From an uncultured Chlamydiae bacterium (GTDB lineage: Bacteria; Chlamydiota; Chlamydiia; Chlamydiales; SM23-39): a stretch of DNA of 64,000 bases. A model generated the notes under the pieces. The model was not told where the DNA came from, ran no database searches, and saw nothing but the letters and a program-made list of their open reading frames with translations. The stretch lies in NCBI GenBank assembly GCA_963828125.1, contig CAWHDP010000002.1, positions 128,001 to 192,000 on the forward strand. The letters run 5' to 3'. A program made the position numbers and the translations under genes. Shown here piece after piece: positions 13,183 through 19,142 of the stretch (position 1 is its first letter; every line of letters begins with the position of its first letter).

Positions 13183-14526
13183 TCATTCAGCAAGGCCAGG
13201 ATTTCGATTTTTTACCTTGTCTCTTTGCGTGAACGCTATCCACTCGCCGATGCTATAGCCGGCGAGCGAGAGGAGAATGCTGCCGATTTCCGATGGGGTG
13301 GGCGGGGAGACGAATTTGAAAAGACAAAATCCGGCGATCCCAAAAACCATCGAGAGAATGCCCGAGATAAAATGCCCCTGCTTTTTGAAGAGAGCGGTGA
13401 GGATGGGGATGAGAAGGCAGCTCAGAGAAAGCTCATAACTCTGTATGAGCATCTCTACGACGTTATTGAAAAAGAAGGCGCAAATAATGGCTGCTGCTGA
13501 GAGAGCTGCTGTGAGGATTTGCATCGAGCGGAGGCTTTTTTGTTTGGAGAAAAAATCGCTCGAGAGATTCGAGCTGATGGCGCTGATGAGCGAGGTGGCG
13601 GTTGAGATAACGGCGGCGAGGACAGCGCAGCCGACGATGGCGGTGATCCAGGGATTGGTGAGGGTGGAGACGGCGACCATGAGGACGCTCGCTCCGGGGG
13701 GGATGATGAGGCCAAGGCTCTTGGCGAGGACGCCAAAATAGACCGGAATAATGCAGATCAGCATGGCGAGTATGCCGGCCCAGAAGCTGGCCTTGGAGAC
13801 GGTGCGAGGCGATTCTCCGGCAAAACACCTTTGTCCCATGTCTTGCTCAATGATCATGAAGAGAAGGGGCATGAGGAGCCATCCGGTGTATTTCGATGTG
13901 GCGACGGCATATGATTCGATGGATGCGGGAAATGGGCCGTCGTAGGCGACCCAGCTGAAAGCAAAGAGGAACACGAGGGTAAAGAGGGTGGCTTGGGCCA
14001 TGTCGGTGGCGATGACGGCTTTAAGGCCGCCTCGTACGGTGTAGAGAATGATGCTGGCCCAGACGGCGACAAAGATGGCGTTGCTAGGGACGCCCATGGC
14101 GACTAAGAATTTTTTGGAGGCGATGATTTGGCCGGCTAGAATCATAAACAGGGAGATCACAGAGAGCATGGAGGCGATTTTGCGCAAGAGAGGGGAGCGG
14201 TAGATCACTTCGAGAATCTGGGCGACGGTCGATACTTGAAATTGGGCGAGTTTTCGGCCGAGGCCGAGGCCGAGAAAGATCAGGCCGAGGGCGTTGCCAA
14301 GGGGGTAAAAGAGGATGGCCCAGCCATATTTGTAAGCCTCATCTGCTGCGCCGAGGACGAGTCCTCCTCCTACTTGGGTGGCGAGGAAGGTCATCATGAG
14401 GGGAAAGAAGGTGACGGTTTTGCCGGCTAGGTAGTAATCGTCTTGGGTTTTGATGTTCTTAGAAGAACGTTTACCAATATACCAATAGATCGTTTGAAGA
14501 ATGAGCACTAAAAATATAAATTTCAT
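13183..14526 (-). CDS. Sodium:solute symporter family transporter
   Basis: DYYLAG, ATQVGGG, YTVRGGLKAVIATD and QDMGQRCFA motifs; many TM helices. Confidence 0.92.
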   Translation of the reverse strand: MKFIFLVLILQTIYWYIGKRSSKNIKTQDDYYLAGKTVTFFPLMMTFLATQVGGGLVLGAADEAYKYGWAILFYPLGNALGLIFLGLGLGRKLAQFQVSTVAQILEVIYRSPLLRKIASMLSVISLFMILAGQIIASKKFLVAMGVPSNAIFVAVWASIILYTVRGGLKAVIATDMAQATLFTLVFLFAFSWVAYDGPFPASIESYAVATSKYTGWLLMPLLFMIIEQDMGQRCFAGESPRTVSKASFWAGILAMLICIIPVYFGVLAKSLGLIIPPGASVLMVAVSTLTNPWITAIVGCAVLAAVISTATSLISAISSNLSSDFFSKQKSLRSMQILTAALSAAAIICAFFFNNVVEMLIQSYELSLSCLLIPILTALFKKQGHFISGILSMVFGIAGFCLFKFVSPPTPSEIGSILLSLAGYSIGEWIAFTQRDKVKNRNPGLAE

Positions 14527-14593
14527 AAAATTCCAAAAATAAAAATTAAAAAAACGCTAACGCGCGAAAAAAATCAGTAAAATGGGGAGAAGA

Positions 14594-14665
14594 TTAATGG
14601 GAATGATGATGGCGGGAACGGGAAAGGGAGCGGGTGGCTGGCGCGTTCAATATTTTCTTAAACAT
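14594..14665 (-). promoter_or_regulatory. Putative His-rich leader peptide MFKKILNAPATRSLSRSRHHHSH
   Basis: 23-codon ORF with an AAGGTAGG SD-like sequence and four CAT codons among the last five; ends 67 nt before the symporter ATG. Confidence 0.6.
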
Positions 14666-14781
14666 AGATACCTACCTTTGTGGCTGATGGGAGCGTACAT
14701 TTATTGAGGATTTAAAGATACTGAAAACAAAACCTTTGCCAAGATCACGATTGACGATCTCTTGGGTTGATTCTCGTTCGT

Positions 14782-14931
14782 TCAACGTCTTTTGAAGAAC
14801 TGAATTTCCCGCTCGTGCTGAACGGCTGCCGCGCGGGTGGTGAAAGTCCCCAAATTCCTTCTCCGGCCCGTCTTGGGGTTTTTCTTGCGCGAATAGAGGC
14901 GATATCCCCCTGAAGGGAGTTTTCTGATCAT
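14782..14931 (-). CDS. Small basic conserved hypothetical protein (49 aa, missed by the ORF track)
   Basis: MIRKLPSGGYRLYSRKKNPKTGRRRNLGTFTTRAAAVQHEREIQFFKRR*; resembles, from memory, a widespread small uncharacterised family. Confidence 0.75.
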   Translation of the reverse strand: MIRKLPSGGYRLYSRKKNPKTGRRRNLGTFTTRAAAVQHEREIQFFKRR

Positions 14932-14962
14932 GATCATCGCATAACAAAGAGACGTTGATTTG

Positions 14963-15631
14963 TCAACCGATCATCTTCCCGTCTTCGAGCCGGACGATCC
15001 GGTCGGCGAAGTGGGCGATGCGAGGATCGTGGGAGACAATGATGAGGGTTTTCTTCCGATCGGTGACGATTTTGCGGAGGAGTTCCATGATTTTAGCGCC
15101 TGTTTCGTGGTCTAAAAAACTGGTCGGCTCATCGCAGACGATGAGGTCGGGGTCGTGGATGAGGGCGCGGGCGATCGCGACCCGTTGCTGCTGGCCGCCC
15201 GAGAGGAGATCGGGGGTGGCGCCGGCTTTTTCTCCGATTCCTAAATCTCGAAGCAGCGCAGCTGCTTTTAGCTCGGCGCTCTTTCGATCCACGCGATTCA
15301 AGAGAAGGGGGATGGCGATGTTTTCAGCGCAGGTGAGCATGGGGACGAGATTGAAGGCTTGGAAGACGAAGCCGATGTGTTGGCTCCGATACCGGGTTTT
15401 TTCGAGATCGGGGAGGCGATTCAAATCTTTTTCTCCGACGAGACATTCTCCGCTTGTTTGCGTTAACATGCCGGCGATGACGGAAATCAGGGTCGTTTTG
15501 CCCGATCCGGAGGGACCCATGATCATCAAAAGTTCGCCGTCTTTAACTTCGAGATCGATGCCGCGGAGGGCGTCCACCCTCGTCGTCCCTTCGCCGAATA
15601 CTTTTGTGACATTCTTGCAGACGACTTTCAT
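14963..15631 (-). CDS. ABC transporter ATP-binding protein (LolD/MacB-like)
   Basis: GPSGSGKT, LSGGQQQR, DEPT and SHD motifs. Confidence 0.95.
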   Translation of the reverse strand: MKVVCKNVTKVFGEGTTRVDALRGIDLEVKDGELLMIMGPSGSGKTTLISVIAGMLTQTSGECLVGEKDLNRLPDLEKTRYRSQHIGFVFQAFNLVPMLTCAENIAIPLLLNRVDRKSAELKAAALLRDLGIGEKAGATPDLLSGGQQQRVAIARALIHDPDLIVCDEPTSFLDHETGAKIMELLRKIVTDRKKTLIIVSHDPRIAHFADRIVRLEDGKMIG

Positions 15632-15634
15632 CTG

Positions 15635-16774
15635 TTAACTCTTGAATACAATGGCCGGATCGATCCGGATTACTTTAATGATGCTGAAGAGGGCGGCGAT
15701 GAGGCAAATGCAGAAGAGGCAAACGCCGCTGAGGAGGTAGAGCCACCAGGGGAGCGAGAAGGAGAGTTCGGTATGGCGGAGGAGCCAGCCGAATAGGGCG
15801 GCGGCGCCTATGCCGATGCCCCAGCCGATGGCGGCCACCATGGCGGCTTGGAGAAAGACCATCTTGATGAGGAGCGCATTGGTGGCCCCCATGGCTTTAT
15901 AGATGCCGAAATAGCGGATATTTTCGAGGATGAAATTAAAAAAGGTTTGCCCTGCGATCGCGACGCCAATAATAAAGCCGAGGAGGATAGCCACTCCGAA
16001 ATTGACGACAATCCCTGTGTATTTCGCATAGTAGAACATCGTGAGCTTTTGAAAATCCCAGCTGGTGTAGGCGGCGTATCCGGTGATGGCGCGGATCTGA
16101 CGGCAGAGCGTCTCTGGAGCTACCCCTTTTTTCGCTTTGACGAGGACGAAGGTGAGGACGTCGCGGACGAGGGGGGCGATGGTAGTGGCGTTATTGTAGG
16201 TCGTATAGATGACGGGTTGGGATTGGAACGTCCTTGCGGTGGAACAGATCCCGGCGACGTAGGCCCTCCTATCGTTGAGTTCCATCACGTCGCCTACCCT
16301 CAACGGGACGCCGTGCGAGGCGAGTTTGTCGGCAGCGCCGATCTGATTGACGAAGACGGCGTCGGGAAAGCGGAGATCGTGAAGGGTCCCTTCGACCATG
16401 GCAGGGGGGCCGCCGATGAGAGTCGCATCATCGATGCCAATGAAGACGCAGGTCTGGAAGGCGCCGCTCAAAAGTCTTGCCTGAATCGTCCCCTTATAAA
16501 GGGGAACTGCCCAATCGATCCCTTCAAGGCTTCTGATCCGATACAAAACAGTCTCTTTCATCCCTTTTAAATCGTCAATGTACTGTACGGTCGGATCCAT
16601 CACCCAAATATCGGGTTGCGAGGTGTCGGTGATATAGCTAAAGGTCCTTTTCATGATCCCGACGAAAATGGCCCCTTGCTGACTGATGATGAAGGAGGCA
16701 AACCCGAGGGCGACCACGAGACCGAGATATTTCATCCGATCGCCGATCAACATTTTTAGGGCGTAGAGGAGCAT
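15635..16774 (-). CDS. ABC transporter permease (FtsX/MacB-like)
   Basis: One N-terminal TM, periplasmic domain, three C-terminal TMs, KAMGA motif and DPAIVFK end. Confidence 0.9.
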   Translation of the reverse strand: MLLYALKMLIGDRMKYLGLVVALGFASFIISQQGAIFVGIMKRTFSYITDTSQPDIWVMDPTVQYIDDLKGMKETVLYRIRSLEGIDWAVPLYKGTIQARLLSGAFQTCVFIGIDDATLIGGPPAMVEGTLHDLRFPDAVFVNQIGAADKLASHGVPLRVGDVMELNDRRAYVAGICSTARTFQSQPVIYTTYNNATTIAPLVRDVLTFVLVKAKKGVAPETLCRQIRAITGYAAYTSWDFQKLTMFYYAKYTGIVVNFGVAILLGFIIGVAIAGQTFFNFILENIRYFGIYKAMGATNALLIKMVFLQAAMVAAIGWGIGIGAAALFGWLLRHTELSFSLPWWLYLLSGVCLFCICLIAALFSIIKVIRIDPAIVFKS

Positions 16775-18207
16775 TGCCAGTTCCCTCCCAGAGCTTTGTA
16801 AAGAGAGATGAGATCGGCGGCGAGCGCCTGTTCGCTTTGAATCAACGTACTTTCTGCATCGAGGAGCGTCTTGAGCGCTCCGAGCGACTCTAACTCGCTC
16901 GCAAGCCCGGCTTGCCATAGGTCATTTGTCAATGCAAGGGATCTCGCATCTGCAGCTAGCTGCGCCGTGATATCGCCATTGCGCCGCTCTTCGTCGAAAT
17001 AGGCGACGAGAGCCCCCTCCACGTCTTGCAAGGCGGAGATCACCGTTTGCTCATAGGATAAAAGCGCTTGCCGTTGGACCGAGTTTGCGGCGTCGATCTG
17101 ACCTCTCGTTTTTCCAAAATCGATCAAATCCCAGTTGATGCTAGGGCCAATGCCCCAGAGGCTGCTCCCGTGCTTAAAGAGCTTCGAAAACGTATTCGCC
17201 TCGTAGCCGTATCCGTTGCCAGTGAGGGCGATGCTTGGGAAAAGGGCAGAAATCGCAATCCCGATCTGTTCGGTCGCAGCCGCTAGCTGCCGTTCAGAAG
17301 CTCTGATGTCGGGTCTTCGGCGGAGAAGATCGGAGGGGAGCCCTGCAGGCACTTTGCCGCAAAAAAGGGGCATCCGGCCTGTCTCATTAAAGCGGTGGGA
17401 GAGCTCCTCAGGCGGCTTGCCCATGAGGACGGCGAGAGCATAGACCGTCTCTTTCAACGATGTTTCTAAAACGGGGAGAGCTGCCTGGTCGCTCTGTAGC
17501 GTCGCGATCTGGTTTTGGATCTGAATTTCATTATCGATTCCTGCATCGAAAAGGACTTGCAATAACTGCAGTTCGCGTGCGTCGGCGGCGATCTTTTTTC
17601 TCAATACTTCGATCTGTCTCTGAAGAGAGCGGATCGCGATATAATCGCGCGCCCCCTCTCCGATTGCAGTGATCAAGATGTTGTCTGCCAAAAATTGGCT
17701 CGCTTCCCATTGATCGAGCGCCGCCTGCTTGCCCCGCCTGAATTTGCCCCAAAAATCGAGCTCCCAAACGGCGTCGAATCCAAATTGGAAAAAATTTTGC
17801 ACGGGAGGGCCTGTGATTGCGCCGATGCCCGACGTGGTGGTTCCGCTTGCGAAGGCCACTGCATTGGCAGCGGTCGTAAATAAATTCTGGCTAAAGCGCT
17901 GCCGAACCGCTACCGCATTTAAATCAATCGTCGGCCAAAGGGTCGAATTTTGGATTTGAAACTGGGCCCGCGCTTCGATGATTTGCTCTACGGCGATTCG
18001 GAAATCGTAATTTCCCTGGATCACTTCATCGATGACCTCATCGAGTATCGGGTCGCCAAATTGCTTCCACCACTGGCATAAATCTTCATCGGAAATCGGC
18101 GCTTGCCCCTCGGAAAATTGCTCGGGCATGGCCACTTCGGGCGTTTGATATCTCGGACCTACCATGCATCCACCGAAAAAAATAAGGAGCACGCCCCAGA
18201 TCCTCAT
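16756..18207 (-). CDS. Efflux outer membrane lipoprotein (NodT/OprM family)
   Basis: GCMVGP lipobox, WELDFWG, PSDLLRRRPDI and LYKALGG motifs. Confidence 0.93.
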   Translation of the reverse strand: MRIWGVLLIFFGGCMVGPRYQTPEVAMPEQFSEGQAPISDEDLCQWWKQFGDPILDEVIDEVIQGNYDFRIAVEQIIEARAQFQIQNSTLWPTIDLNAVAVRQRFSQNLFTTAANAVAFASGTTTSGIGAITGPPVQNFFQFGFDAVWELDFWGKFRRGKQAALDQWEASQFLADNILITAIGEGARDYIAIRSLQRQIEVLRKKIAADARELQLLQVLFDAGIDNEIQIQNQIATLQSDQAALPVLETSLKETVYALAVLMGKPPEELSHRFNETGRMPLFCGKVPAGLPSDLLRRRPDIRASERQLAAATEQIGIAISALFPSIALTGNGYGYEANTFSKLFKHGSSLWGIGPSINWDLIDFGKTRGQIDAANSVQRQALLSYEQTVISALQDVEGALVAYFDEERRNGDITAQLAADARSLALTNDLWQAGLASELESLGALKTLLDAESTLIQSEQALAADLISLYKALGGNWQCSSTP

Positions 18208-19142
18208 CTTTCACCTTGGAATAGCGTTGCTGCTTCAATATAGACGTCTAAAAGCTGGCCTGCATAGACTGGAAGATCCATCCGGTCAAACTGGTAGAGA
18301 ACCTGAAGAACCCTTGTATCGAGCCTTTCAATCGTCTCGCCAGTAAAAGAGGTTTTCGGAATGACGTAGGGCTCTATTCTCAAAAATTTCATCGGGAAGG
18401 AAATATTCGCATTGCCTCGCACGAAAGCGGTGGCCCGCGCTCCCTTTTGAAAGCGCCAGCAATCCTCCTCGTCGATATCGATCCGCATTTGTAAAGGAGA
18501 GACGGTTCCCATCAAAATCTGCGCCGTCTGCAAATTAGAGTAAGATTGTGTGACGCCGTAAGAGTTCGGAGCGTAGATTTCGCCGATATGGGCATTGATT
18601 TGCAAAATCTCTCCGTCAACGGGCGCGCAAATCGTCGAACGGACGATGTCGGTCTCCACCTGTTGCAGCTGATTTTGCGCGACATAAACCTGTTCTTCCG
18701 CCTCGAGCATGGCGTAGTAGGCGGAGGCATATGCCTGCTCGCTCACGGCCCTCCGATCGGTCAGCCTTTGATAAAAAGAAAATTGGGTCTTCTGGTTTTT
18801 ATAGGCAATCTGGGCTGCAGACAGTTGGCTTTCGGCTGTCTTCTTTGACGCCTCGAGGCTCCGGGTATCTTGTTTCAAAAGGGGATCTCCCGCTTTCACT
18901 AGATCCCCCTCGACTACATAGATAGCGACGACCGGTTCCACAAACGGAGTCCCAATGGCGATGTTTTCGGTCGAGGCTTCGATGATCCCTGCTCCATAGA
19001 TGGCCGCTCTGTAAGGCGATGTCGGCGCCGGAAATTCAATCGGAGGGACAGGGAGTTTTCTTTGACTCCAAAACACGACCCAGAGGGCGACGATCGCCCC
19101 GATCGCCGCCAAAATAGGAAGGATCCATTTCTTATAGCCCAT
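18204..19142 (-). CDS. Membrane fusion / periplasmic adaptor protein
   Basis: VVEGDLVKAGDPL and ICAPVDG lipoyl-like motifs; DTRVLQV. Confidence 0.9.
   Translation of the reverse strand: MGYKKWILPILAAIGAIVALWVVFWSQRKLPVPPIEFPAPTSPYRAAIYGAGIIEASTENIAIGTPFVEPVVAIYVVEGDLVKAGDPLLKQDTRSLEASKKTAESQLSAAQIAYKNQKTQFSFYQRLTDRRAVSEQAYASAYYAMLEAEEQVYVAQNQLQQVETDIVRSTICAPVDGEILQINAHIGEIYAPNSYGVTQSYSNLQTAQILMGTVSPLQMRIDIDEEDCWRFQKGARATAFVRGNANISFPMKFLRIEPYVIPKTSFTGETIERLDTRVLQVLYQFDRMDLPVYAGQLLDVYIEAATLFQGER

Follow-up and report, generated by a model that had tools for sequence, protein, structure and literature searches.

Does a short upstream open reading frame (uORF) that ends in histidine codons sense the histidine supply of a chlamydial cell, and does it control the sodium:solute symporter gene that lies behind it? 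The question is raised by a locus in the window analysed here, a stretch of 64,000 nucleotides from an uncultured Chlamydiae bacterium, in which an initial annotation had proposed a hisL-type, possibly Rho-dependent attenuator of a histidine importer. Chlamydiae need amino acids from their hosts and possess few regulators, and we know of no leader-peptide attenuator that has been validated in them. No description of a chlamydial His leader or of a His-importing SSS protein was found in the main texts of the literature covered; the genome-wide tables of leaders in PMC4833913 and PMC2965389 may contain some of the ORFs, and the attenuator surveys of Gelfand and Lyubetsky lay outside this scope.

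The window belongs to a genome (G000) that is 95% complete, and all features of the locus described below lie on its minus strand. The leader ORF (14594..14665) encodes 23 residues, MFKKILNAPATRSLSRSRHHHSH*, with His codons at 14611-14603 and 14599-14597. It is preceded by the SD-like sequence AAAGGTAGGT (14670..14679), at the place of which the nearest relative has AAAGGATAGGT, and its stop is separated by 67 nt from the symporter start at 14526; the coordinates given in the initial annotation were confirmed in these respects. The symporter gene (13183..14526) encodes an SSF/SSS protein of 447 residues, predicted to import histidine, that matches PF00474 with an E value of 3.5e-22 and 79.3 bits, against a gathering score of 22.8. 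A candidate sigma-70-like promoter for leader and symporter, TTGGCA-16-TATCTT (14715..14742), is weak, with 9 of 12 matches, and is not significant, one such site being found where 0.8 are expected in shuffles. Two further features lie upstream of the leader on the same strand. The first is a small basic ORF of 49-51 aa (14782-14937) that has no Pfam or NCBIfam match and falls into unnamed Atlas clusters of proteins of 49-50 aa; because these score 0.98, its sequence probably represents a real, widespread microprotein. The second is an apparent efflux operon (14963-19142) of DevA-like ABC ATPase, permease, outer-membrane-factor-like and membrane-fusion-like genes.

The leader is more than a chance ORF, as its distribution in front of orthologous symporters demonstrates. 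The 174 symporter loci gathered were reduced to 141 by shared 8-mers, which merged some near relatives with different contexts (L008 into L178), and six with less than 250 nt of upstream sequence were left out, giving 135 evaluable, non-redundant loci. They are a sample of a family matched in 159 of 400 genomes of the phylum (E<=1e-30), one gathering step having kept 80 of 183 matches. With an adjacent leader defined as an ORF that has at least four His in its last 14 codons and ends no more than 350 nt from the symporter, leaders of this type are conserved in 81 of the 135 loci, adjacent in 67 and further upstream in 14, while 12 loci have three His and 42 have none, including seven of a low-His variant (g73, see below); these counts include kin and are not independent. 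Conserved His-rich uORFs before orthologous symporters, which the initial annotation had named as the check on its proposal, were thus present. The same rule selected only five of 1239 genes of G000, the symporter of the window among them, and none of the 135 antisense upstream windows. Applied to other residues, it yielded at most three cases each for C, W, Y, M, N and Q, and 49, 33, 26 and 18 for L, S, I and F, partly in the same leaders. In a FastTree phylogeny of the symporters, leaders are spread over most clades and are entirely missing from others, such as L155/L156/L164/L165/L168/L183/L184. The named relatives are by title nearly all chlamydial or unclassified MAGs, and a few are labelled Verrucomicrobia.

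Leaders start with ATG in 77 of 83 cases and follow an SD-like sequence in 69 of 83, a count that is partly circular since starts were picked for the best SD. Their spacers to the next gene range from 39 nt to 280 nt, and spacer lengths are evenly distributed modulo 3 (25/28/21), which rules out a coupling of frames between leader and symporter by read-through or frameshifting into the next gene. It is hardly credible that the His-rich peptide is itself functional, for instance as a metal-binding microprotein, or that the ORF is a by-product of CAT repeats. His-rich peptides do bind metals, and 87% of the His codons in leaders (419/481) are CAT, but the absence of leaders from the antisense windows argues against a repeat by-product, and the peptide outside its His tail is unconserved, with a mean column identity of 25% among environmental leaders. 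CAT and CAC are mixed in 48 of 83 leaders. The placement of the leader before his operons and His-poor importers, described below, likewise fits His sensing and not metal handling.

Other searches for the leader gave mixed returns. A leader-peptide profile run against 61 genomes was insensitive: it gave five matches, missing both G000 and G002, and these were three leaders already known, an ABC target not seen before (L200) and poly-His proteins that are unrelated (L202). The latter, at L202 1330-2126 in G019, are encoded by three tandem copies of an 82-aa ORF, nearly identical to one another, each of which begins like a signal peptide and also has a hydrophobic stretch and nine consecutive His. 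A scan of G000 for other C-rich, G-poor uORFs with an SD returned 52 of 4146, the leader of the window being the highest in C, and revealed no clear second sensor. No leader was seen at hisS of G000, where an upstream ORF ends about 20 nt before the gene. In one symporter clade (L086, L093/L146, L111, L113, L147), the gene lies tail-to-head opposite an ispG-like gene, as read from translation, and only a reduced leader is left, as in L111 (MNHPFIFLHPSHQI) and L145 (MKHHTPHRL), or none.

What the leader senses is best judged from the company that it keeps. Histidine synthesis is rare in the phylum: hisD was found in two of 61 relatives and hisG in five of 400 phylum genomes, neither of them in G000, by searches that were positive in 14 of 14 control genomes. 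Six his operons were found (in G002, G027, G142, G408, G295 and G291), and all six carry the same Ser/Phe-rich, His-ended leader 90-147 nt before their first gene. The first gene of each is purH-like, and hisI and hisG come next where they were identified; the purH-like product would recycle the by-product AICAR. A close symporter is absent from all six genomes, G291 having only a match at E 1.8e-45 and G027 being only 63% complete. Among these loci (L037, L038, L196-L199), a hisC-HAD domain fusion is seen in L037, with ORFs of similar length in several others, and the copy in G027 is split into many pieces. The third target, reached through the leader profile search, is a polar-amino-acid ABC operon. 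Six of 11 close homologs of its binding protein have the leader, and in none of the genomes concerned does a symporter carry one; in two other genomes the leader stands at the symporter and not at the ABC gene, and in three it stands at neither. No His leader was detected at 43 TyrP permease ORFs, from 30 loci among well over 100 matches. Elsewhere in the genome of the window, L205 (G000:C1, 1414-4380) holds an aromatic amino-acid ammonia-lyase gene of the HutH/PAL family, adjoined by the end of a divergent MFS transporter gene and with a transposase-like ORF nearby; its product could serve in His degradation or in the synthesis of a secondary metabolite.

Homology of the symporter says nothing in favour of His, because the proteins of known structure nearest to it transport choline (E 2.5e-30 and 4.9e-22), and the protein falls under every substrate-specific NCBIfam cut-off (PutP, 37.4 against 515.5; PanF, 50.9 against 328; ActP also below). 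Its composition is more telling. A single His among 447 residues (0.22%) equals the lowest value among 66 hydrophobic proteins of G000, the control set, which contains 1.67%. Symporters with an adjacent leader contain 0.25% His and those with a distant leader 0.11%, compared with 0.49% in those without leader; 30 of 66 with an adjacent leader have no His at all, as is also the case for L030, one of three distant paralogs. Behind one leader type there is thus either His synthesis, the symporter or the ABC importer, which provides a strong argument for His sensing and a good one for His import. Together with the conservation of the leader, the His-poor symporter and the rarity of hisD and hisG, it makes it very probable that the leader senses His in the form of charged tRNA-His, and likely that the symporter imports His or a direct source of it, as these sequence patterns predict. 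The two corresponding proposals of the initial annotation, sensing of His and import of His by the symporter, gain support from phylum-wide conservation, from the leader shared with six of six his operons and an unrelated ABC importer, and from the depletion of His.

In some loci the leader heads a longer operon, which consists of a gene of the Asp/Glu-racemase family, an ORF without convincing Pfam or NCBIfam match, and the symporter (L058 826-2484, L080 855-2457, L073 488-1935 and others); this arrangement occurs in eight loci, or nine with L160, and racemase remnants persist in three more. Both the CNT and the GCTE motifs are present in eight of the nine racemases examined. The middle ORF has 157 homologs with conserved YxWxEG, QYxEGY and LPNDExKYY motifs, is poor in His (0.55% among the 120 listed of the 157) and gave only sub-0.9 leads in the ESM Atlas. 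These operons, and the choline-transporting relatives, lend something to the idea that the leader senses His while the symporter carries another relief of His shortage, such as a His-containing dipeptide, D-His or another imidazole compound, which the racemase-like protein and the product of the middle ORF would process. We consider it improbable, as the symporter stands alone behind the leader in most loci, that of the window included, one query detected no racemase in G000, and his operons or a polar-amino-acid ABC importer can take the place of the symporter behind the leader.

How a leader that very probably responds to His would act on the gene behind it must be sought in its RNA. Across the leader family, G makes up only 3-9% at positions -60 to -15, and U accounts for 49-55% past the stop. 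The last 60 nt contain on average 19 C and 4.5 G, compared with 13.5 and 13.8 in a coding control, and have a median MFE of -4.6 kcal/mol, compared with -17.3 kcal/mol for coding windows. Codon choice indicates that selection acts on the RNA, given that 188 of 199 Ser codons before the His run are TCN, with AGY at 5.5%, whereas symporter ORFs use TCN for 74% of their Ser codons and AGY for 26%; of the Leu codons in that region, 99 of 145 are CTY, as opposed to 40% in symporter ORFs. A U-tract (at least seven of eight) within 20 nt of the stop is present in 34 of 88 leaders and at 24 of 393 ordinary stops. In the window, the leader has 26 C and 9 G in 72 nt, as its description as C-rich and G-poor had implied, and 17 C and 2 G in the 37 nt of its 3' half. 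Centred on the His codons lies a tract of 75 nt (14566..14640; C31 T28 A11 G5) whose MFE structure is mostly unpaired save for two short helices.

Sites at which Rho loads (rut sites) are described as 60-90 nt long, with C exceeding G and little structure (PMC12360218). The tract of the window (75 nt, C31 G5) is rut-like in having more C than G and a low structure content, and it overlaps the site at which a ribosome would stall, so that it is a predicted Rho loading site. G000 encodes Rho (TIGR00767, over cut-off). Rho-dependent attenuation is favoured because the leaders are C-rich, G-poor and unstructured and are often followed by U-tracts, and shielding of the rut site by the ribosome because leader composition matches the published description and rho is present. 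When His is plentiful, the ribosome would pass through the His codons and be released at UAA, exposing the roughly 75-nt C/U tract, on which Rho would load to end transcription at or past the U-rich pause region. When His is scarce, a ribosome stalled on the His codons would cover the core of the tract, and polymerase would read on into the symporter, whose near-absence of His would allow it to be made in His starvation. On balance, it is somewhat probable that the leader senses charged tRNA-His and gates transcription of the predicted His importer through Rho; that Rho is the main output of the leader is about an even call. The leader composition is in keeping with the role for Rho that the initial annotation had raised as possible. 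Ribosome shielding of a rut site has precedents in tnaC, speFL and cruR (PMC12360218). Spacers down to 39 nt leave Rho little room unless termination falls inside the next gene. Contigs from four sequencing runs at L151, all from one study and of guessed RNA status, are divided: those of two runs stop near the leader stop codon (1611, 1619), one contig of the other two spans the stretch, and one has no leader coverage.

The same transcript has features of a classical terminator and antiterminator, as the initial annotation had noted. AACGCGC (14641..14647) has a perfect 7-nt complement, GCGCGTT (14565..14559), and pairing of the two, which belongs to the MFE structure, would disrupt a weak 4-bp hairpin, GCGC-GUUA-GCGU, that is followed by U7 (14548..14565, about -5 kcal/mol). 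The complement had been described as preceding a T7 run; it does exist, but the run (14554..14548) begins four bases past it and not directly after. The helix is not more than chance, since shuffling the spacer still leaves it with a perfect 7-nt complement to the uORF in 49% of cases. In L039, the nearest relative compared at the DNA level (70% protein identity, which no relative from the genus and metagenome searches exceeded; three proteins at 84-85% also exist), the small downstream hairpin and its U-rich tail are kept but the AACGCGC arm is missing, and the best duplex reaches -5.2 kcal/mol, compared with -13.6 in the window. Masking the codons around codon 8 does let the hairpin form (probability 0.47). 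The helix, however, keeps a probability of 0.93 irrespective of which of four places the ribosome occupies (His19, His21, His23 or the stop codon), and if a second ribosome queued behind it, starvation would promote termination, which is the wrong sign. The AACGCGC/GCGCGTT helix was therefore rejected as the switch for which it had been taken, being at chance level, unconserved in the nearest relative and insensitive to ribosome position.

Nor is there much in the family as a whole to commend terminator control. Hairpins of -12 kcal/mol or better were found in 3 of 83 leaders, of -8 in 14 and of -5 in 25; at the last threshold they are somewhat enriched (25/83, compared with 16% of shuffles), and the median energy is -3.1, compared with -3.0 in shuffles; the leader of the window stands at -4.6 kcal/mol. 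The whole leader of the window folds no better than shuffles (z 0.35), a terminator scanner returned no match on the minus strand of the window, the hairpin being below its threshold, and Rfam His_leader gave no match at E<=10 in the window and none at gathering in 12 loci. With a hairpin of only about -5 kcal/mol and no Rfam match, classical terminator control is very unlikely, and the locus does not qualify as a hisL-type attenuator in the strict sense. The hairpin with its U7 is possibly a pause site or a weak terminator.

Translational attenuation would draw on the same composition, since an anti-Shine-Dalgarno element, too, would have to be rich in C and U. In such a scheme, the downstream RBS and start would be sequestered by base-pairing with the stretch around the His codons (CAU/CAC, UCC, UUC) until a ribosome stalled there released them, and Rho would act secondarily on untranslated mRNA. 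Leaders pair with the RBS of their own locus at -9.4 kcal/mol, compared with -8.6 across loci, -8.0 for the RBS of leaderless symporters and -8.0 for shuffled RBS, and beat G-matched permutations (-9.4 vs -8.8 kcal/mol, p 0.0055, among kin that are not independent). Locus-specific complementarity beyond -3 kcal/mol was detected in 12 of 67 loci, with one in the opposite tail and none for the control segment, and L039 reaches -13.2 kcal/mol. In contrast, the duplex of the window attains only -6.6, with a pairing probability of 0.01. With the His codons blocked, the RBS is on average hardly more accessible (0.40 instead of 0.37, 59 loci), and accessibility improves by more than 0.1 in 14 loci, compared with five for a control block; spacers extend up to 280 nt with no relation between length and energy; and the six his-operon leaders are mixed, from -3.3 to -12.6. 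Translational attenuation is thus unlikely as the general explanation, at the level of a minority possibility, and Rho gating and RBS pairing could act together.

One branch of the family departs from the design of a His-codon run. In g73, a genus of small genomes (1.0-1.3 Mb) of which 15 of the 19 matching genomes were examined, the uORF is kept in 15 of 15 loci (L119-L131, L135, L136), 75-110 nt before the symporter. Its first ATG lies 29-35 codons before the stop, and it ends in an RYSGRYLH-type motif with only one to three His. Variable columns fall 13 times at third codon positions and six times at each of the others, and a CTC CAT pair is invariant, although the motif also served as the locator, so that its invariance is partly by construction. 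The sequence makes it possible that this leader is an arrest peptide and suggests a codon-run sensor that is turning into one. Cpn0486 presumably belongs to the same symporter family. It is listed as 'proline permease' (PMC5723314), and the g73 transporter may be misannotated under that name.

Compared with known systems, the chlamydial leader appears to combine a hisL-like signal with an output like that of tnaC, speFL and cruR. The enterobacterial hisL and the His leaders of the Bacillus cereus group and of clostridia share with it a short uORF with tandem His before his or His-related genes, in the accounts of PMC9413887 and PMC2965389, and the presumed signal, charged tRNA-His, is the same. 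Unlike hisL, the chlamydial leader has no conserved antiterminator and terminator hairpins and no Rfam match, and its His run closes the ORF and lies within an unstructured tract that is poor in G. Its main target is an SSS symporter, whereas the His transporters named in PMC9413887 are HisXYZ and YuiF. As described in PMC12360218, a ribosome held on the uORF of tnaC, speFL or Bordetella cruR shields a rut site that adjoins the uORF or lies within it, as proposed here, and cruR also gates an importer. These three, however, rely on a free ligand together with a conserved arrest peptide, according to the same source, whereas most chlamydial leaders offer only hungry codons, an arrangement to which the g73 leader with its invariant motif may be the exception. 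The mycobacterial poly-Cys 'ribulon', in the descriptions of 10.1101/834739 and PMC1262725, likewise places one residue-run uORF before several operons without a terminator hairpin. Those poly-Cys uORFs are presented as leaderless, RBS-sequestering and Cys-sensing, in contrast to the chlamydial leaders, which have an SD, sense His by our reading and pair with the RBS in a subset only. For the SSS domain of Pseudomonas CbrA, L-histidine transport is reported (PMC7918813); it is described there as fused to a sensor kinase and constitutive, and what it has in common with the window symporter is the SSS-family fold. Within Chlamydia trachomatis, TrpL and the WWW motif of YtgR provide codon-based amino-acid sensing, as here, but both concern Trp, TrpL being described as unvalidated and atypical and YtgR as acting in trans from inside a coding sequence (PMC7755916, PMC3937554).

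The chlamydial leader can thus be regarded as a variant on amino-acid leader attenuation that much of the phylum has conserved and for which we propose a mechanism and predict a substrate. We tentatively go further and suggest that it may represent a phylum-wide histidine 'ribulon' in Chlamydiota: Rho would be gated directly, with no RNA switch, by hungry His codons that lie within a rut site. The genes so controlled would be those of an SSS histidine importer not described before and of an ABC importer, a racemase operon and the rare his operons, and g73 would show a codon-run sensor that is becoming an arrest peptide. For chlamydiae, the finding would mean a conserved cis-acting His sensor and a testable substrate for a family of symporters that has matches (E<=1e-30) in 159 of 400 genomes of the phylum, and the leaders would offer a natural series for asking whether stalling in starvation alone gates Rho without RNA structure.
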